From NCBI GenBank assembly GCA_949283535.1, contig CASDTC010000008.1, positions 2,717 to 66,716 of the forward strand: 64,000 nucleotides of DNA, in the 5' to 3' direction. The position numbers and the translations under genes are program-made. Within the stretch, counting starts at the first letter, position 1; each line of letters begins with the position of its first letter. The notes below the pieces were generated by a model. The model ran no database searches and was not told the origin of the DNA. It saw only the letters and a program-made list of their open reading frames with translations. The stretch comes from an uncultured Pseudomonadota bacterium (GTDB lineage Bacteria; Pseudomonadota; Alphaproteobacteria; Rs-D84). Positions 3,315 to 49,317 of this stretch are shown here, in pieces.

Positions 3315-3421
3315 TTGTCATTGCGAGCGTAGTGAAGCAATCCAGTAAATGATGCCCGCGCGTATGCGCGACTTTATTATAACTGGATCGCCACGGTCGC
3401 GTTGCTCCCTCGCGATGACAA
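3315..3421. repeat. REP/RPE-like palindromic dimer (GTCATTGCGAG...GCAATCC type)
   Basis: Left arm TTGTCATTGCGAG..GAAGCAATCCAGT (3315-3346); the right arm reverse-complemented reads TTGTCATCGCGAG..GTGGCGATCCAGT (3382-3421); central CGCGCGTATGCGCG hairpin. Confidence 0.75.
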
Positions 3422-38626: not shown

Positions 38627-38709
38627 TGGTGGATGTTGAGGGACTCAAACCCCCGACCCTCTCGGTCTCGGTGTAAACGAGATGCTCTAATCAACTGAGC
38701 TAAACATCC
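38627..38709 (-). tRNA. tRNA-Val(UAC), atypical: 6-nt duplication after the anticodon stem
   Basis: GGATGTT/AACATCC acceptor stem + ACCA; D arm GCTC/GAGC; TCTCG-TTTACAC-CGAGA; extra CCGAGA; T loop TTTGAGT. Confidence 0.88.
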
Positions 38710-41300: not shown

Positions 41301-41454
41301 ATTCTTAATTCAGTTTCAATGCGAAGAAAAATCATTCGTTTTTGCATTCTGGGATAAATGCAAGAATGAACAATTTCTTCCCCGCATTAATTGATTATAA
41401 ATAATATTTGCGTATATGCAAACTTTTTTCATTATGTGAAAAAATCACAATGAT

Positions 41455-41642
41455 TTGATTTTTCTGTTATCTGTGATAAAATGCTTAATGCATTGGATGA
41501 TTACCAATGCGGGGTGTAAGAACCTCTTACTAGTACAAACTCCAACCACGGTTGGAGGGTTGCGAATATATCGAATAAGCACACTATTGCTAGTAATAGT
41601 TCTTAACCTCCAACCGCCATTCATCACGGCGGTGTTTTTATT
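41455..41642 (+). promoter_or_regulatory. Promoter plus C4/CI-like structured RNA leader with switchable terminator (copy A)
   Basis: TTGATT..TGnTAAAAT promoter; hairpins; complementary pairs TAAGAAC/GTTCTTA, TTACTAGTA/TGCTAGTAA, CGGTTGGAGG/CCTCCAACCG; terminator ACCGCC..GGCGGT-GTTTTT. Confidence 0.7.
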
Positions 41643-41673
41643 AACCAACAATAAAAAACAGTGGAGAGAAAAA

Positions 41674-41922
41674 ATGATACTGGTCGATAATTCATATATT
41701 GGGCGCCGAATAAGCAGTGCGCGTAAAACCGCAAACATAAAACGAAACGATGCGGCAAGAATGCTGCGCATAACCCCAAAGAAATTATTAAGATACGAAA
41801 GCGGCAAAGAATTAATCCCCGAATTCGTACTGGAACGATTGTTTTACAGTGCATGGGCAATGATGGCGGTGCGAAATGCCCCGTATCGTGAAACGCCCCG
41901 CCGCCCACAATGGGGAAAATAA
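41674..41922 (+). CDS. XRE-family HTH protein (82 aa)
   Basis: GGAG RBS; IG.RI..AR......R..AA..L.I....L.RYESG. Confidence 0.82.
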   Translation: MILVDNSYIGRRISSARKTANIKRNDAARMLRITPKKLLRYESGKELIPEFVLERLFYSAWAMMAVRNAPYRETPRRPQWGK

Positions 41923-41990
41923 AACACAATATCTATATTCACATTTTGTCATCGCGGATTATCACAGATGGCATGGCAATCCATTTAATA

Positions 41991-42017
41991 AAAAAATCGC
42001 CCAAACGGGCGATTTTT
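41991..42017. terminator. Bidirectional intrinsic terminator
   Basis: AAAAAATCGCCC-AAAC-GGGCGATTTTT. Confidence 0.8.
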
Positions 42018-42288
42018 ATTTACGCAGACCCAGTTTTTTAATCAGGTCTTCGTATTCAGAAACACTGTTCTTTTTGATGTATGCCAATAATTTTTTACGG
42101 CGGTTAACCATCAGCAATAAACCACGTCTGGAATGTTTATCCTTGTGATTATTTTTCATGTGTTCTGTCAAATTGCGAATGCGTTCCGTTAAAACAGCAA
42201 CCTGGGATGCAGCAGAACCACCATTATCCCGTTCTGTTGTTTTAAATGCCTGAATCAATTCACTCTTTTTTTCTTTTGTAACGGACAT
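42016..42288 (-). CDS. rpsO: 30S ribosomal protein S15
   Basis: [14 protein letters not shown]....KD.HSRRGLL.MV..R.KLL.Y; start at ATG 42288. Confidence 0.97.
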
Positions 42289-42311
42289 TGTTTGTTTCCT
42301 TTTATTATTTT

Positions 42312-43184
42312 TTATATTGTTCGTGTCGGACGCAATATTCCACATGCAACCGTACCAATTCCAATAAATTCAGAATTACTGTATACGCGCCACATGCCGT
42401 CATATGCATCTGTTTCAATAAATCCGCCATTTTTGTATAATTTCACAGATTTATCGTCCAGATTCAGAACCGGAATGTCCCCCAGTCCAAAATCTGTTGG
42501 TTCCAAGAATCTCTTGAAATCTGCACCATTATTAACCAGATTTTCCAAAAAATCAAGTTGTACAGCATTTTTTATCTGAAATCCGATACTTTCTGTGCGT
42601 CGTATCATATCAACCGTGGCATATGCACCACACAAATATGCAATATCCCGCGCCAGCGCACGCACATATGTCCCACGCCCGCAACGCGTACGAAAGTGCC
42701 AAATATTCTCATTTACATCGATTAATTCCAGGCATTCAATATGTACGCGGCGTGCTGGGATTTCTATATCCGTGCCACGGCGTGCCAGTTCATATGCACG
42801 GCGCCCGGAAACATGCACGGCGCTGTATGCCGGTGGCGTTTGATTAATATCGCCAATTAATTGTGGCAATACCGATAAAACCATATCGCGCGATGGAATG
42901 ACATCACTGTTTCGTATTGTTGTGCCGGTTATATCCAGTGTGTCTGTTTCAAAGCCAAACTGTAATGAAAATTCATATTCTTTGATATTTGAACGCACAT
43001 CTTCGACAAACGGAATCATTTTTGTTGCCGCACCCAATGCAATTGGCAGTATGCCCGATGCCATTGGGTCCAGTGTGCCAATATGTCCAAATGTTTTTGC
43101 GTTAAATATACGCGCCACGCGCGCGCCGGCGGCGCGGCTGGATATACCGGACGGTTTGTCTAAAATAATCCAACCAGATGACAA
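42312..43184 (-). CDS. truB: tRNA pseudouridine(55) synthase
   Basis: [37 protein letters not shown]. Confidence 0.95.
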
Positions 43185-43185
43185 T

Positions 43186-43677
43186 TTAACGCCTTTTGAT
43201 TTGATATTTTTCCCGCGCGATGGTTGATAAAAATTTATTTAATTCTGAACGGTTTTCTTCACAAACCGGAAACAATTGACGCAAGTTATGCATATTAATG
43301 ACCGCATCTGTTATGCCACGATGTAATAAAATTTCACGATATTCACGGTTAACAATCCCACCACCATTTCTGGAATGCGAATCCATCGGAACATCGGCAT
43401 ATACGCGACCAGACGCATTATCAATACGAACACTGCGCGCCGCAATAAATCGCGGTCCCCAACGGATATCAGATTCACAATAATATCCATCCATGACAAA
43501 TTCCAGTTTCGCCCCCAATTGAAATTCTGGCAATCCGGTTGATAAATTACTGACCGTGTGGGGTGCCATAAAATTAAATTCGGTCAAGAATTCTTTTAAA
43601 TGCGCAATATTATAAAATTCTTGATATCGCGGTTCATAAAACGGTGTTCTGAAAACAAAAACTGGTTTTAAATTCAT
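43186..43677 (-). CDS. Hypothetical protein (163 aa)
   Basis: ORF with GGGG RBS-like sequence filling the gap between mutS and truB; no recognised family. Confidence 0.7.
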   Translation of the reverse strand: MNLKPVFVFRTPFYEPRYQEFYNIAHLKEFLTEFNFMAPHTVSNLSTGLPEFQLGAKLEFVMDGYYCESDIRWGPRFIAARSVRIDNASGRVYADVPMDSHSRNGGGIVNREYREILLHRGITDAVINMHNLRQLFPVCEENRSELNKFLSTIAREKYQIKRR

Positions 43678-43692
43678 AAATTACCCCCCTGG

Positions 43693-46254
43693 TCATCCAA
43701 ACAGGTTTAATTGTACCCGCCCCGCTGGTTGTGCGACACAATTTGGTTTTGTATTGTCTGGGGTTTTGGTATTGTTTTTTTCACATTGCATGTTTTCTGG
43801 CATTGTATCGTGCGCAATTTCATCACCACGCATTTCCAGTGTTGCCAATACATCTTCGGCACGGGTAACGACTGATTCTGGCATGCCCGCCATTTTGGCA
43901 ACCTGAATCCCATATGAACGATTTGCAACACCAGGCACAATTTTATGCATGAATATTATTTCATTATTATGCTCACGAACATCAATTGTCAGGCACGATA
44001 CATTATTTAATTGCCCAGCGCCATCGCCAACCAATGCGGTTAATTCATGATAATGGGTTGCAAACAATGTACGCGGACACATTTCGTTTAAAAATTCTAA
44101 GACCGCCTGGGCAATTGCCATGCCATCATATGTTGCCGTACCGCGTCCAATTTCATCAAAGATAATAAAAGACTGTTTTGTCGCACGGCGCAGGATGTTT
44201 GCAGTTTCACTCATTTCCACCATGAATGTGGATTGACCCGCCGCCAAATTATCAGACGCGCCAACACGACTGAATAATTGGTCGCAAATGCCAATTGTTG
44301 CGCGGGTGGCGGGCACAAATGACCCCATATGTGCCAATACAACCAGTAATGCATTTTGACGCAGGTATGTTGATTTACCCGCCATGTTTGGTCCGGTCAA
44401 TAATGCAATCGGGCGCGCATTTAAATTGCAATCATTTTTGACAAAGTTATCCCCGCGGCTGCGCAAGACAAAATCAATTACAGGATGACGCCCGCCAACA
44501 ACATCAAATGCATTATCATCTGTGATTGTTGGGCGCGTCCAAGAATAACGATCGGCAACAATTGCCAATGAATACCATGCGTCTAAATCCGCCAATGTAT
44601 CCGCCGCCGCCAACAGGTCATCGGATGCCGCGCGGATATGGTCAATCAAGCGCGAAATAATTTCAGCCTCTATCGCCGCCGATTTTTCCGCCGCAGATCG
44701 CACATCATTATCCAAATCAATCAGGCGCGCAGTTGTAAATCGCATGTTGCCCGCCATCGTTTGACGATGAATAAATCCAGATTCAGGCTTCATTAATATA
44801 TCGGCGCGGGTGGATGGAACCTCTATAAAATACCCCAGGATATTATTATATTTTATTTTTAAGTTATGTATACCAGTGTCGGCGGCATATTGTGCCTGTA
44901 AACTGGCAATTGTTTCTTTGGCGCCATGTGCCAATGAACGCATATTATCCAGCGATACATCAAATCCAGCCCGAATTACATTACCATCACGGAAAAATGT
45001 CGGCAATTCATCTGATAATGCCGAACGCAATTCCAACGCCAAATCATCATGTGTATGAATTTCAGAAAATTTTGCCGCAAATCCAGAATCCAGTTTTGTC
45101 CCCAAAACCCGCGCATTTGGCAGTTCAATTAAAAAATCTGTTATATGACGCATATCACGCGGTGTGCCACGACCAGATAACAGGCGCGACAAACTGCGCC
45201 CGACATCCGGCAATCCATCCAGCGCATTTGATACCGCGCCCATAACATCAGGATTTAATATTAAATGTCCAATATGTTCCTGGCGTTTGCGAATTTCATC
45301 AATGTCCCCAGATAATGTGCGCAAATATGCACGCAATTTACGCGCACCGGCGGCGGTCTTGGTATTATCCAGAACATCAACCAGGCACACCCCGCCATCA
45401 TTTATTGGCGCGTCAATTTCCAAGCTTTTCCATGTTGCAGAATCAATTAATAATTGACGCCCAGATTTATAAACATATGGCGCACGAAATGTTATCGCGG
45501 CACCGCGTTGGGTATTAAATAAATATCCCGCCAATAATGCAATTGCATTATCGCAATTTGTTGCACCATCCACAGGCGCATTAACCACGCCGCCAAATAC
45601 GCGCGATACAATCTGGTCAATATCTGTGCGATGATACAGTTTTTCATATACGGGCGTTGTTTTAAATACATCGCGCAAATGCAAAATATTTTTATCTTCG
45701 GCACAGGATTCTGGATAAATAACCTCTGCCGGGTTTATACGAACCAGGTCATCCAATACATCGCCTGTTTTGCCAACAAAAAATTCACCCGTTGAAATAT
45801 CGCATCCCGCAATATCAAATCGCCCATCGGGCATTGGTGCAACCGCAATTAAAAAATTAGAATTCTTTGGCGTTAATAAATTTTCATCGGTCAATGTCCC
45901 CGGTGTTAAAACACGGATTATTTTTCGTTCAATAAATTTATGCCCGCGCGCCTTGGCTTCCGCAGGGGTTTCCATTTGTTCAACCAATGCAACACGAAAA
46001 CCCGCCCGAACCAGGCGACCAAAATAGTTATCAGCGGCATGCCATGGAATTCCGCACATTGGTATATTTTCACCATCGCCATCGGTACCACGCTGGGTTA
46101 ATACCAGCCCCAGGTTTGTACTGATGGTTTTGGCGTCTTCAAAAAAAGCCTCGTAAAAATCGCCCAGGCGAAACATCAGCAATGCATCGGGATTTTCCGA
46201 TTTCATATCAACATATTGCTGCATAACAGGGGTTAATTTATTCTTATCCGCCAC
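43693..46254 (-). CDS. mutS: DNA mismatch repair protein MutS
   Basis: TP.MQQY, FRLGDFYE, TGPNMAGKSTYLRQ, STFMVEM, DEIGRGT, C-terminal clamp motif QLNLF. Confidence 0.98.
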   Translation of the reverse strand: MADKNKLTPVMQQYVDMKSENPDALLMFRLGDFYEAFFEDAKTISTNLGLVLTQRGTDGDGENIPMCGIPWHAADNYFGRLVRAGFRVALVEQMETPAEAKARGHKFIERKIIRVLTPGTLTDENLLTPKNSNFLIAVAPMPDGRFDIAGCDISTGEFFVGKTGDVLDDLVRINPAEVIYPESCAEDKNILHLRDVFKTTPVYEKLYHRTDIDQIVSRVFGGVVNAPVDGATNCDNAIALLAGYLFNTQRGAAITFRAPYVYKSGRQLLIDSATWKSLEIDAPINDGGVCLVDVLDNTKTAAGARKLRAYLRTLSGDIDEIRKRQEHIGHLILNPDVMGAVSNALDGLPDVGRSLSRLLSGRGTPRDMRHITDFLIELPNARVLGTKLDSGFAAKFSEIHTHDDLALELRSALSDELPTFFRDGNVIRAGFDVSLDNMRSLAHGAKETIASLQAQYAADTGIHNLKIKYNNILGYFIEVPSTRADILMKPESGFIHRQTMAGNMRFTTARLIDLDNDVRSAAEKSAAIEAEIISRLIDHIRAASDDLLAAADTLADLDAWYSLAIVADRYSWTRPTITDDNAFDVVGGRHPVIDFVLRSRGDNFVKNDCNLNARPIALLTGPNMAGKSTYLRQNALLVVLAHMGSFVPATRATIGICDQLFSRVGASDNLAAGQSTFMVEMSETANILRRATKQSFIIFDEIGRGTATYDGMAIAQAVLEFLNEMCPRTLFATHYHELTALVGDGAGQLNNVSCLTIDVREHNNEIIFMHKIVPGVANRSYGIQVAKMAGMPESVVTRAEDVLATLEMRGDEIAHDTMPENMQCEKNNTKTPDNTKPNCVAQPAGRVQLNLFG

Positions 46255-46265
46255 GATGAATCCAT

Positions 46266-46469
46266 TTATGCTTGTACTGGGTCAACCTTTAATGTTTCGA
46301 TTTTCAGTTCGGCTTCCTTTAACAATTGTTCGCAATATGCCTTTAATTTTATTCCCTGTTCATATGCGGCAACAGATTCCGCCAATGGCAAATCCCCAGA
46401 TTCCATTTTCTTTACCAGTTCTGTTAATTGCTTGTACGCATCTTCGAATGATAACTTTTTTTCGTCCAT
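46266..46469 (-). CDS. xseB: Exodeoxyribonuclease VII small subunit
   Basis: SFE.A...L...V..ME.G.L.L.ES...YE.G..L...C...L..AE. Confidence 0.93.
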   Translation of the reverse strand: MDEKKLSFEDAYKQLTELVKKMESGDLPLAESVAAYEQGIKLKAYCEQLLKEAELKIETLKVDPVQA

Positions 46470-46595
46470 TTTTATTCCTTGATTTATTTATGCAAACAAT
46501 ACACAACGAAACGCAAAAACGCAATTAAAATAAACTATTTTTAAATGAATTTTTATCACTGTTGTGATATAATACCCGCTGAAAATCAAGAGAGA

Positions 46596-47345
46596 ATGCA
46601 TATGAAAAATAAACCAGAAAAAAACCGCCCAACAAATATTATTTCGATGAATAAAATCTGTAAAAGTTTCCCGCTGGAAATGGGTGGCGAACAACAGGTT
46701 TTATTTGATATCACATTTGATGTTAACCAGGGCGAATTTGTTTCAATTATGGGACCATCGGGCAGCGGAAAATCCACATGTATGAATATTATCGGCGCCC
46801 TGGATACACCAACCAGTGGGACATATAAACTGTATGGAAATGATGTTGCAAACCTGTCTGATGATGAATTGGCGATAATCAGAAATGAATATATCGGATT
46901 TGTGTTCCAGCAATTTAACCTGTTATCAAAACGCAGTGTATTGGACAATGTTATGTTGCCATTGATGTATCGTGGATTGCCCATGGATGAACGCGTGCGT
47001 CGCGCGCGGGAAATGTTAAAACGCGTTGGATTGGAAAAATTCGAAACATATTTACCAAACCAATTATCCGGCGGTATGAAACAGCGTGTGGCAATCGCAC
47101 GCGCACTGGCGGGCGATCCAAAATTAATTCTGGCGGATGAACCAACCGGCGCGCTGGACAGTAAAATGGGAAATGATATTTTAACATTCTTGAAACAATT
47201 AAATAAAGATATGGGTATTACAATCGTTATGATTACCCACGAATTTGAAATTGCACAATATTCTGACCGTCTGATTCATATATACGATGGACGCATAACA
47301 TATGATGGACGCGTGCCACGCGATGAACGGGTTTTACAAAAATAA
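46596..47345 (+). CDS. MacB/LolD-type ABC transporter ATP-binding protein
   Basis: GPSGSGKST, GFVFQQFNLL, LSGGMKQRVAIARAL, LADEPTGALD; start 46596 or 46602. Confidence 0.93.
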   Translation: MHMKNKPEKNRPTNIISMNKICKSFPLEMGGEQQVLFDITFDVNQGEFVSIMGPSGSGKSTCMNIIGALDTPTSGTYKLYGNDVANLSDDELAIIRNEYIGFVFQQFNLLSKRSVLDNVMLPLMYRGLPMDERVRRAREMLKRVGLEKFETYLPNQLSGGMKQRVAIARALAGDPKLILADEPTGALDSKMGNDILTFLKQLNKDMGITIVMITHEFEIAQYSDRLIHIYDGRITYDGRVPRDERVLQK

Positions 47346-47373
47346 ATATTATAAATAATAGCAGGCAAAAAAT

Positions 47374-48591
47374 ATGACATTTAACGATATTTTAAAAGAA
47401 TCTTGGCTGTCAATCAGTGGAAATAAAGTTCGATCGTTTTTAACCGTTTTGGGCATCATTATTGGTGTTATGGCGGTGGTGATTATGGTTGCGGTTGGCG
47501 AAACAGTATCTAAACAGGTCAGCGACCAGTTTTCATCACTGGGGACGAATACCATAACCATACGCGCCGGCGCGGCACAAAGCGCGGGTGTACGCACAGG
47601 AAACAGACAAACACTGACCATCGATGATGCCGAATTTATCGGTCAATTGCCCGATGTTGCGGCATACAGCCCTATACAAAACGCATCTGCCCAGGTTATT
47701 TATGGCAACCAAAACTGGGCAACATCAATGGTGGGCGCGTATCCCGGATATGAACAGGTGCAAAATCTGGAAATGGAATACGGAACTTTCTTTAACCAGG
47801 CGGCGGTACGAAATGGGTCAACATACGCAATTATTGGTCCCCAAACCGCCGAAGAACTGCAAATGCCTGAAAACCCGGTTGGTGAAATTATTCGTGTACA
47901 AAATATGCCGTTTACCATTATTGGCATGACGCGCGAACGCGGTGATTCTGGGATGTTCAGCCAAGACGACATGATTATAATTCCAATCACCACATTGAAA
48001 AAGCGTCTGCAAGGCAGCCGGTTTCCAAATTCGGTCAGTACCGTGACATTGAAATTAAATGAAAATGCAGATAACGCGTTGGTAATTGAACAAATAACCG
48101 CCCTGTTGCGCGATCGGCATAAATTGGCAGATGACGAAGCTGATGATTTCCAAATCATGGATATGAAACAAATGATGGAGGCGATGGATACCGTCACCGG
48201 ATACATGACAATGTTGTTAATCGCAATCGCGGCGGTATCGCTGTTGGTGGGATCAATCGGAATTATGAACATGATGTTGGTATCAGTTGCAGAACGCACA
48301 CGCGAAATCGGCATACGCAAAGCCATTGGCGCGCGCGAACGGCATATCGTTATTCAATTCTTGTCCGAAGCACTGTTGATATCTTTCATTGGTTCCATGG
48401 TCGGGTTGATATTCGGGGTTGGTCTGTCCCAGGGGATTGGGCGTTTTGTTATGGGATATGATGTGCCGTTCAGTATATGGCCGGTGGTGGTATCGGTATC
48501 TGTGGCGGTTGTTGTGGGTCTGGCGTCGGGGGTTATGCCCGCGATGAAGGCGGCAAAACTGAACCCAATTGACAGTCTGCGTTATGAATAA
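47374..48591 (+). CDS. MacB-family ABC permease
   Basis: RSFLTVLGIIIGV, IGIMN.MLVSV.ERTREIGIRKAIGA, A.LNPI..LRYE. Confidence 0.93.
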   Translation: MTFNDILKESWLSISGNKVRSFLTVLGIIIGVMAVVIMVAVGETVSKQVSDQFSSLGTNTITIRAGAAQSAGVRTGNRQTLTIDDAEFIGQLPDVAAYSPIQNASAQVIYGNQNWATSMVGAYPGYEQVQNLEMEYGTFFNQAAVRNGSTYAIIGPQTAEELQMPENPVGEIIRVQNMPFTIIGMTRERGDSGMFSQDDMIIIPITTLKKRLQGSRFPNSVSTVTLKLNENADNALVIEQITALLRDRHKLADDEADDFQIMDMKQMMEAMDTVTGYMTMLLIAIAAVSLLVGSIGIMNMMLVSVAERTREIGIRKAIGARERHIVIQFLSEALLISFIGSMVGLIFGVGLSQGIGRFVMGYDVPFSIWPVVVSVSVAVVVGLASGVMPAMKAAKLNPIDSLRYE

Positions 48592-48617
48592 AAAAAACGC
48601 CCCGTGGGGCGTTTTTT
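48591..48617 (+). terminator. Intrinsic terminator
   Basis: AAAAAAACGCCCC-GT-GGGGCGTTTTTT. Confidence 0.8.
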
Positions 48618-48674
48618 ATTGTCTGTATGTGGCATAAATACACCAAAACACTGGCATTTATAAAATTATTAGTA

Positions 48675-48902
48675 TATAATACGCGGTGAACCTGATTTAG
48701 AAGGTTCGGGGCATTAAACAGCCTCCTCTAGTCGGTGCAGATTGCACCATAACGTAATTTGCGGTGCATATTTGCATCGCGGTTCCCCGAATATGGTCGG
48801 GGTGCTGGTGGTTATACAACAGGATTTTCCAAAAGCCACCAGGTCGACTAGAGCGATTGTTTAACACCCCGACCATCAAGTTTTTTGATGGTCTTTGTTT
48901 TT
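48675..48902 (+). promoter_or_regulatory. Promoter plus C4/CI-like structured RNA leader with switchable terminator (copy B)
   Basis: TATAAT at 48675; complementary pairs TTAAACA/TGTTTAA, CTCTAGTCG/CGACTAGAG, ATGGTCGGGGTG/CACCCCGACCAT; terminator GACCATCAA..TTGATGGTC-TTTGTTTTT. Confidence 0.72.
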
Positions 48903-48920
48903 AATTACACGGGGACTGAA

Positions 48921-49271
48921 ATGGCGGGGAAAAAGTTTGTACCATCACAAATGGATATTTGCATTGGTGAAATGATTAATTTAATGCGCAATAAATTTGG
49001 CATGTCGCAAAATGATTTAGCCGCACATCTGGGGGTATCTTTTCAACAAGTGCAAAAATATGAATCCGCGGGAAATCGTATATCGGCATCGCGGTTGCAT
49101 CAAATTGCCGATGTTTTCCAGATTCCAGTTGCGCGATTCTTTAATGAAATTGATAATGGTCTGTTGATTGATGATGCAGTGCGAAAAATGTTAAAACAAT
49201 TTTTGGCACTGGGGACAGATGACCGGCGATATATTTTAAAACTGATTCAACGATTGGCGCACAGCGCATAA
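48921..49271 (+). CDS. XRE-family HTH transcriptional regulator (116 aa)
   Basis: GGGGA RBS; D..IG..I...R...GMSQ..LA..LGVSFQQVQKYE...NRISASRL. Confidence 0.9.
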   Translation: MAGKKFVPSQMDICIGEMINLMRNKFGMSQNDLAAHLGVSFQQVQKYESAGNRISASRLHQIADVFQIPVARFFNEIDNGLLIDDAVRKMLKQFLALGTDDRRYILKLIQRLAHSA

Positions 49272-49290
49272 AACCGGACATCATTAATTA

Positions 49291-49317
49291 AAAAATCCCG
49301 CGATACGCGGGACTTTT
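49291..49317. terminator. Bidirectional intrinsic terminator
   Basis: AAAAATCCCGCG-ATA-CGCGGGACTTTT. Confidence 0.75.

Follow-up and report, generated by a model that had tools for sequence, protein, structure and literature searches.

Candidate address-locked terminator/antiterminator leaders related to c4 immunity RNAs in a reduced-genome gut alphaproteobacterium

Two leaders among housekeeping genes

Within a 64,000-nucleotide (nt) stretch of the genome of an uncultured alphaproteobacterium of the order Rs-D84 (assembly GCA_949283535.1, contig CASDTC010000008.1, positions 2,717 to 66,716; hereafter the window), two structured leaders, which we refer to as A and B, each precede a small gene encoding a helix-turn-helix (HTH) protein. 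Leader A sits between rpsO and pnp, is oriented away from pnp, and has the 82-amino-acid (aa) HTH gene on its 3' side; leader B lies 3' of an ABC-transporter permease gene and is followed by a 116-aa XRE-family gene and then by gpsA in convergent orientation. The interpretation that we favor, with a probability of roughly 55%, is that A and B are address-locked terminator/antiterminator leaders, members of a lineage-expanded family derived from the c4/sRNA-Xcc1 class of immunity RNAs. The neighboring genes (pnp, rpsO, truB, the ABC transporter and gpsA) are housekeeping genes, and the setting is not that of a prophage, as an earlier interpretation made from the letters alone (the sequence-only reading) had it. 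The host assembly is 830,597 bp (0.83 Mb) long in 23 contigs, is 93% complete and has a G+C content of ~41%. Bacteria of the order Rs-D84 are reduced-genome gut bacteria that probably depend on a partner; the parts of the genomic paper covered here make no mention of RNA elements or of RNA-level control of surface proteins (PMC12306168), and no title among the papers listed under the name Enterousia concerns RNA regulation.

Both loci have the same layout: a promoter-like site that ends 7–8 nt before the first hairpin, a structured leader, a hairpin with a T-run, a ribosome-binding site (RBS), and a start codon 18–34 nt past the hairpin and T-run. Each would amount to a self-contained cassette made up of its own promoter, a structured RNA of ~150–215 nt, an intrinsic terminator and a gene. 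The sequence-only reading had given the two leaders a common order of parts, and every part that it listed was found in its place (Table 1). Thermodynamic folding gave z-scores of −4.38 for leader A and −6.74 for leader B, and 0 of 200 shuffles folded as well. An extended −10 box lies 7–9 nt 5' of hairpin H1 in all 12 aligned copies. (Note that the terminator of leader A was not flagged by a simple terminator scan because the loop limit of that scan is 8 nt.) Contigs assembled from RNA libraries of related strains span 41594–41956 and 48489–48939; as assemblies only, such contigs cannot show transcription, ends or levels, nor does a lack of cover elsewhere carry any meaning, and where their joints fall in leader A (41515–41528 to 41594–41595) the intervening sequence is unknown and the joints may be assembly hops between repeat copies.

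Table 1 Features of cassettes A and B (window coordinates)
Feature	Position	Strand	Remarks
A: promoter-like site	41455..41482	+	TTGATT-16-TAAAAT with TG extension; puts transcript start at ~41490
A: leader	41490-41639	+	H1 start to terminator end
A: 5' hairpin H1	41490..41510	+	7/7 pairs with compensatory changes (42 sequences)
A: hairpin H2, GGGG/CCTC stem	41511..41526	+	loop displays address a1 (41516-41523)
A: linear address b1 (TTACTAGTA)	41527..41535	+	complement of b'
A: segment X (CTCCAACC)	41540..41547	+	pairs with Y; identical to core of Z
A: segment Y (GGTTGGAGG)	41550..41558	+	5' arm of c4/sRNA-Xcc1-like core
A: core (inner) hairpin hp1	41559..41584	+	stem covaries
A: core hairpin hp2, CUAU/AUAG stem	41584..41599	+	address b' (41588-41596) in loop
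A: single-stranded address a' (GTTCTTA)	41599..41605	+	complement of a1
A: segment Z (CCTCCAACC)	41607..41615	+	core 3' arm; last 3 nt are first 3 nt of terminator stem
A: intrinsic terminator	41613..41639	+	ACCGCC, 9-nt loop, GGCGGT, then GTTTTT; stem pairs covary
A: HTH gene, 82 aa	41674..41922	+	HTH_31, E 3.1e-6; GGAGAG RBS; 34 nt after terminator
A: bidirectional terminator hairpin, 3' end of cassette	41990..42017	.	read from sequence; common to cassette copies
A: cassette insertion, approximate extent	41434..42010	+	within rpsO-pnp spacer
B: promoter-like site	48651..48680	+	CTGGCA-18-TATAAT
B: leader	48688-48902	+	same part order as leader A
B: 5' hairpin H1	48688..48707	+	from folding
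B: hairpin H2	48708..48726	+	displays a1 (TTAAACA, 48714-48720)
B: linear address b1 (CTCTAGTCG)	48726..48734	+	from folding
B: two additional hairpins between b1 and X	48734-48748 and 48760-48781	+	from folding
B: segment X (CCCCGA)	48785..48790	+	pairs with Y
B: c4/sRNA-Xcc1-like core	48795..48882	+	RF02221, 44.7 bits (cut-off 53), E 1.4e-6
B: core segment Y	48795-48803	+	
B: core hairpin hp1	48805-48842	+	
B: core address b'	48845-48853	+	
B: core address a'	48858-48864	+	
B: core segment Z	48866-48874	+	
B: intrinsic terminator	48871..48902	+	5' arm shares 4 nt with Z
B: XRE-family HTH gene, 116 aa	48921..49271	+	HTH_3, E 8.2e-12; then terminator 49296-49312

A dispersed family with copy-specific addresses

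Further copies of the leaders, which the sequence-only reading expected, were found in abundance. A two-arm pattern search identified 16 loci in the host genome, and a covariance model built from 12 of its A-type copies gave 14 strong matches on the sense strand and 1 partial match; together with 4 B-type copies, the host genome contains ~19 copies. The A-type model matches 51 of 61 genomes including the host (34 of the 36 searched in the genus, plus 16 of 24 from five further families of the order), and the genomes with matches are all between 0.5 and 1.1 Mb in size, with up to 45 matches per genome, although matches to a covariance model are not exact copy numbers. The B-type arrangement of H2 and a1 recurs in 20 B-type copies of the genus. 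A scan with the exact pattern, in which each species was represented by one genome, matched at least 118 stretches; among the matches listed, the sources are gut metagenome-assembled genomes from animals labelled Candidatus Enterousia, Alphaproteobacteria or Rickettsiales, and one titled Muribaculaceae.

Within a copy, a1 is complementary to a' and b1 to b'. The sequence-only reading had reported that each seed and linker co-varies with its own target (for the seed, TAAGAAC with GTTCTTA in A and TTAAACA with TGTTTAA in B), and this co-variation is not due to chance. In particular, when 42 copies from 31 genomes were aligned to the A-type model (a model-fitted alignment, which leans toward the model), 96.4% of the cells of the closed fold were paired compared to 80.7% in shuffles and 40–48% with slid partners, 21 pairs and 213 cells contained double changes, and 0 of 500 shuffles reached any of these measures. 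The a1:a' pairs are 96% paired in these copies, and all seven inner pairs have compensatory changes; pair 32:164, for example, is AU in 20 sequences, CG in 15, GC in 4 and UA in 1. The outer four pairs of this helix, which join GGGG to the invariant CCUC of Z, show no compensation. Where GGGG changes, it is the partner in the local H2 stem that compensates (25:40 and 26:39) and the long-range partner that breaks. The hp2 stem also covaries, with pair 139:156 being UA in 32 sequences and AU in 10. Moreover, RNAalifold predicted the long-range a1:a' closure unaided from 12 host copies.

Because b1 is out of register in the alignment, b1:b' was scored by duplex energy. Cognate b1:b' duplexes have an energy of −7.38 compared to −3.00 (standard deviation 2.13) for non-cognate ones, and the corresponding values for a1:a' are −8.08 and −2.48; cognate duplexes lie beyond the 5th percentile of the non-cognate ones in 33 of 42 copies for b1:b' and in 39 of 42 for a1:a'. 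Among 16 host copies the mean cognate energy is −21.9 kcal/mol compared to −12.05 for non-cognate combinations. The cognate partner is the best one in 11 of the 16 rows, and in 2 further rows (leader A of the window and C5:36403, the 5' module of which was mis-extracted in this comparison) it is outscored only by the module of the B-type copy at C1:621. For the 20 B-type loci of the genus, the energies are −20.4 (cognate) and −13.7 (non-cognate), with the cognate being best in 11 of 20 rows and 16 of 20 columns. The 9-nt linker containing CTAG, which the sequence-only reading counted among the common parts, is present in A and B but is not general, other copies having, for example, TCCAAG or TTCAAAC in its place.

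Addresses appear to diverge faster than the leader backbone among recent paralogues. In 18 pairs of copies with a backbone identity of at least 0.90, address identity is 0.69, compared to 0.89 for the other covarying stems and 0.90 for the H1 loop; leader A and the leader of its paralogue on contig C14 are 0.99 identical in the backbone and 0.50 identical in the addresses, and their HTH genes are near-identical. Five host copies have the same a1 and different b addresses. (Note that two copies of the host genome, G000:C1:71192 and C7:16382, are chimeric, in that a' fits their own a1, which they share with leader A, and b' (TTCTTGGA) fits the b1 of the C14 copy rather than their own, which hints at recombination among cassettes, or at cross-talk.)

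Cassettes A and B are insertions between housekeeping genes, and the empty sites that the sequence-only reading proposed to look for in relatives are there. The rpsO-pnp spacer measures 715 nt in the host and 153–154 nt in two relatives (G008 and G036), the alignment revealing a conserved pnp leader followed by a clean insertion of ~570 bp; a leader lies within 1.5 kb of rpsO in only 3 of 29 other rpsO loci. Similarly, the permease-gpsA spacer measures 751 nt in the host and 28–72 nt in 6 relatives, and an XRE homologue occupies it in 1 of 29. The bidirectional terminator hairpin at the 3' end of cassette A now also serves rpsO, and the relatives with the empty site have a different rpsO terminator. 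Homology among cassettes begins at the −10 box and stops at the 3' terminator, and no terminal repeats or target duplications were seen in the alignments of cassettes and empty sites. In a contig from a related strain, 48682–48854 is swapped for 179 other letters with the flanks conserved. Five viral contigs carry cores, and on one of these a full leader stands in front of a gene for a secreted protein, with a tail gene (phrog_52, E 1.8e-109) 2.5 kb away. A blastn comparison of A and B with 50,697 phage records returned nothing.

The sequence-only reading cast the leaders as controlling stand-alone XRE regulators. Leaders A and B do precede HTH genes, but the family is not XRE-specific, about half of the downstream genes encoding secreted or surface proteins. 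In the host, ~10 of 19 copies are located before small HTH genes, which fall into three paralogue groups; other copies precede genes for a Cys-rich surface protein, a glycosyltransferase-like protein, a small secreted protein, an autotransporter-like protein, a lipoprotein and an outer-membrane beta-barrel-like protein, and two are without a clear downstream gene. Among 34 downstream open reading frames (ORFs) from the genus, 9 match Pfam HTH_31, and by eye ~17 were judged to be small and HTH-like and ~15 to have a signal peptide at the start. A downstream ORF was picked for 39 of 42 copies examined. The start codon lies 13–34 nt past the T-run in 35 of these 39, which leaves no space for a separate promoter, and a Shine-Dalgarno-like motif is present in 34.

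Paralogues of the HTH gene of cassette A occur on host contigs C4, C14 and C19. The copy at G000:C19:5024-5361 (minus strand) retains H1, H2 with an a1 identical to that of leader A, and b1, is missing everything from X through the T-run of the terminator, and has an intact paralogue behind it; it thus represents a natural terminator-less variant. At G000:C14:10724-11047, an 8-nt deletion with a frameshift leaves 46 aa of the paralogue behind an intact leader, and a palindromic repeat is inserted ahead of the paralogue's terminator. Short palindromic units of this kind (ACTGGATYGC ... YGCRATGACAAR) form a second repeat family, with 61 and 46 motif matches genome-wide. They are often found directly 3' of HTH cassettes, and one splits the terminator of the leader at C2:64960; other sites are window positions ~3325–3411, a half-motif at 41946–41956, and C1:71719-72062, C2:23177-23314, C4:6837-7011 and C7:16924-17068.

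A candidate switch between terminator and antiterminator

Segment Y is complementary both to the upstream segment X and to the downstream segment Z, X having the same sequence as the core of Z. The three segments change together between subtypes: X, Y and Z are CTCCAACC, GGTTGGAG and CTCCAACC in the A-type; CCCCGA, TCGGGG and CCCCGA in the B-type; CTCCTGC, GCAGGAG and CTCCTGC in two other host copies; CTCCAGCC, GGCTGGAG and CTCCAGCC in genome G059; and CCAGC, GCTGG and CCAGC in genome G042. Pairing of X with Y and pairing of Y with Z are mutually exclusive, yet X, Y and Z covary, and therefore both pairings appear to be kept. Z in turn overlaps the 5' arm of the terminator, by 3 nt in A, by 4 nt in B and by 4/5 stem pairs in the G059 copies. 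The leaders contain mutually exclusive helices of which one is a terminator hairpin with a U-run, the arrangement by which an intrinsic-terminator attenuator is recognized. The a1:a' and b1:b' helices enclose X:Y and cross Y:Z, with which they do not nest.

We compared the two states by constrained folding, the energies being thermodynamic predictions. At full length the closed fold with the terminator has an energy of −54.6 for A and −95.4 for B, compared to −47.6 and −79.7, respectively, when Y:Z is forced. Just before the 3' arm of the terminator, the closed and Y:Z folds are at −44.3 and −42.6 for A and at −82.8 and −78.2 for B, so that the gap at this decision point is 1.7 kcal/mol for A and 4.6 for B. 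When a1 and b1 are blocked in silico, Y:Z becomes the minimum-energy fold at the decision point in both A and B; when a' and b' are blocked instead, full-length B loses its terminator.

These predictions suggest how the leaders might work. In the OFF state Y would pair with X, acting in leader A as an anti-antiterminator arm, so that Z is free and the terminator hairpin can form. In the ON state Y would pair with Z to form the c4-like core, the first 3–4 nt of the terminator stem would be occupied, and transcription would read through into the gene. The two copy-specific long-range helices, one between the a1 loop and single-stranded a' and the other between linear b1 and the b' loop, would lock the OFF fold, and occupation of one of the addresses would shift the nascent RNA toward the antiterminator; the analogy with c4 and CI suggests a processed RNA with the same address as the most likely occupant. 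Since each copy has its own address pair, signalling would be gene-specific. We infer termination as the regulated step, OFF as the default and any action in trans.

Several observations weigh against this interpretation. Within the A-type X, Y and Z are invariant, so that their covariation is visible only when subtypes are compared. In A, Z and the terminator have only 3 nt in common, and full-length A keeps the terminator fold even with a1 and b1 blocked, so that the switch would have to be kinetic. In 3 of the 16 host copies (C1:71250, C7:16440 and C2:65018) the addresses are clearly mismatched or chimeric. Furthermore, the stems against which address divergence was compared belong to the backbone set by which the 18 close pairs were selected, and recombination among cassettes, instead of selection, could underlie the fast divergence. 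Finally, neither Hfq nor RNase P RNA was found in the 93%-complete assembly, from which we claim no absence.

An extension of the terminator/antiterminator model, which we regard as a rather improbable one, is that the leaders are orthogonal RNA-addressed bistable switches, in which a leader that has been read through frees its core RNA, which then masks a1 and b1 only on later transcripts with the same address and keeps the gene ON. If true, heritable ON and OFF states could be set gene by gene without any change in DNA, and in a gut symbiont with a minimal genome the surface proteins and small regulators, ~2% or more of genes, would undergo phase variation via a domesticated phage immunity RNA instead of protein regulators.

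Relation to known RNAs and alternative explanations

The likeness to c4 that the sequence-only reading had drawn is borne out at the level of architecture. In the annotation of the P1 record, two c4 promoters are followed by a1, b1, c4, a2, b2 and icd, and the Rfam models RF03163 and RF01695 (clan CL00128) placed on P1 reveal a hairpin, a second hairpin whose loop holds a1, then b1 as a linear stretch, and a core in which b' occupies a hairpin loop and a' is single-stranded. The leaders described here have a promoter, a hairpin, an a1-loop hairpin, a linear b1, a core and then a gene in the same order as the P1/P7 immI region, with address pairs of 7–9 nt as in immI. Moreover, the cores of A and B share the topology of C4 (RF01695), namely an outer stem enclosing a hairpin, a hairpin with an antisense loop, and a single-stranded antisense segment, and the upstream module, with a1 in a loop and b1 linear and both complementary to a' and b', resembles c4-a1b1 (RF03163). 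In P1 the c4 core is processed by RNase P to a free RNA of ~77 nt. At the level of the models, however, Rfam does not reach the leaders at gathering scores, as the sequence-only reading had required: a tRNA is the only such match in the window (a gene with a long variable arm at 38630–38709 on the minus strand), C4 has no match at E ≤ 1 genome-wide and none at E ≤ 10 in either leader region (the threshold being 45 bits and P1 itself scoring 68.8), and c4-a1b1 has none at E ≤ 10 in either leader region.

There are differences from immI as well. Here the terminator overlaps the 3' arm of the core and X competes for its 5' arm; there is no prophage setting and no antirepressor, the genes downstream of A and B being small HTH genes; and a genome holds tens of copies that differ from one another in address and have diverse cargo. 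No a2/b2-type target is found at the RBS of the next gene in general, cognate and non-cognate energies there being −5.57 and −4.86 for b' and −4.12 and −3.97 for a'. The sequence-only reading had suggested that the RNA blocks downstream expression as c4 does; given the lack of an a2/b2 target at the RBS, translational repression in the manner of c4 does not apply. Possible exceptions are the copies at C3:39697 and C11:5238 and the canonical copy of genome G029. At G000:C3:39697-39872 (minus strand) the b' loop CGCAUAC is complementary to GUAUGCG across the start codon of the glycosyltransferase-like gene, and ~0.5 such 7-nt matches are expected by chance across the set. In G029 (locus L202, C7:80229-80314) the start codon of the next gene is immediately preceded by a perfect 8-nt complement of the b' loop, as is canonical for the c4 type. 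The c4-like reading thus holds for the architecture, whereas in mechanism and scope it is wrong or unproven.

Another close relative in Rfam is sRNA-Xcc1 (RF02221). The core of B aligns to positions 1–87 of the 87 of this model with all helices, and L202 exceeds the cut-off, at 57.8 bits. Unlike members of that family, A gives no hit, B remains below the cut-off (Table 1), as do all 6 matches in the host, the A-type has a nearly invariant loop of 15 nt (GAAUAUAUYGAAUAA, 41564–41578) in place of distal hp1, and there is no RBS target. Across the genus, matches at E ≤ 0.001 occur in 24 of 36 genomes, in 23 of which all are below the cut-off, and 1 genome in 37 has one above it. The member in E. 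coli EDL933 (69.1 bits) lies 40 nt 5' of an antirepressor gene of a prophage, and CUUAUUU in its loop can pair with AAAUAAG, which occurs upstream as well as at the ant RBS; this context and these complements argue that the sRNA-Xcc1 family is of the c4 type. In Xanthomonas, sRNA-Xcc1 is located upstream of symE in an integron cassette (bioRxiv 10.1101/2025.06.18.660453), and the parts of the literature naming sRNA-Xcc1 that were covered contain no published mechanism for the form with leader and terminator. (Note that in both P1 (L292, 120–175) and EDL933 (L201, 1440–1480, minus strand) a terminator-like hairpin with a T-run is present between the a1b1 module and the core; that of P1 overlaps a sub-threshold IsrK match of 35.1 bits.)

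Two further systems bear comparison. The CI RNA of satellite phage P4 (seqA/seqB/seqC) is a processed leader RNA that controls premature transcription termination by way of short segments, the complements of which lie in the same leader. The leaders described here share with it such segments and complements and, as proposed, control of premature termination; in P4, unlike here, there is a complement on both sides of the RNA, which acts as a repressor. Attenuators of the trp/pyrBI type have four segments that form the mutually exclusive pairings 1:2, 2:3 and 3:4, to which X:Y, Y:Z and Z with the terminator arm correspond here; the leaders differ from these in having no leader peptide and no known ligand, and in that two copy-specific long-range helices would set the balance.

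The alternative that fares best, although we consider it unlikely, is the one put forward by the sequence-only reading, namely negative feedback of the c4/P4 CI type, in which an excised core would pair in trans with a1 and b1 of cognate nascent leaders and enforce termination, so that the gene is ON only while the RNA is absent or degraded. The leaders have the layout of P1 immI, where c4 represses icd/ant (PMC8546580), and both c4 and P4 CI are substrates of RNase P (PMC5499578). Moreover, at both addresses a loop faces a linear segment, which is typical of fast bimolecular antisense pairing, and many copies have an RCC(A)-like tail after Z. Against this stand the missing a2/b2 target at the RBS and, more weakly, the fact that RNase P RNA was not found. 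In addition, folding predicts that the default state in cis is OFF and that blocking a1 and b1 favors the antiterminator, so that an RNA acting in trans would activate rather than repress.

We think it still less likely that the helices are plain structural elements of a stable cis leader or small RNA, with drift and compensation but neither an address role nor a switch, and with a terminator that ends the small RNA or damps expression constitutively. Variation and covariation are likewise seen in H1 and the hp1 stem, the fold of minimum energy is the closed one, and composite a+b sites outside the leaders show no excess in the host genome (46 compared to 66.8 in shuffled controls). On the other hand, among recent paralogues the addresses diverge about three times faster than an unconstrained loop and the remaining variable stems, X covaries with Y and Z despite the mutual exclusivity of X:Y and Y:Z, and compensation also preserves the local hairpins in which a1 and b' are exposed. 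A role in DNA, with the conserved inverted repeats being where a mobile cassette recombines or inserts (like attC or miniature inverted-repeat transposable elements), would account for the insertion of both cassettes at terminator-bearing spacers, the dispersal of the copies, the integron cassettes of Xanthomonas and the conserved AAC/GTT at the inner end of a1:a', but is most improbable given signals that are specific to one strand (the extended −10 box, a T-run on the sense strand only and an RBS at a fixed distance), the many G-U pairs that would be C-A mismatches on the other strand (27:169 is GU in 42 of 42 sequences and 1:24 in 26), a single, untyped tyrosine recombinase gene in the genome, and the lack of visible terminal repeats or target duplications.

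The address-locked terminator/antiterminator leaders that we propose would connect the poorly understood sRNA-Xcc1 and the c4 RNA of P1 to a leader that the host has domesticated and that is massively amplified in an uncultured gut lineage with a reduced genome. Dozens of distinct RNA addresses on one conserved scaffold constitute a rare natural set with which RNA-RNA specificity and attenuation become testable, and which may serve as ready-made orthogonal parts. The leaders in front of genes for envelope proteins point to RNA-level control of surface proteins in Rs-D84 organisms, related contigs of which are labelled Candidatus Enterousia.

The 5' leader of pnp, next to cassette A, contains a long hairpin of its own (41315–41391, minus strand) that is invariant in three relatives and is preceded by a promoter-like site at 41422–41394. 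This hairpin, which attracted chance matches to microRNA models, is probably the pnp autoregulatory stem.

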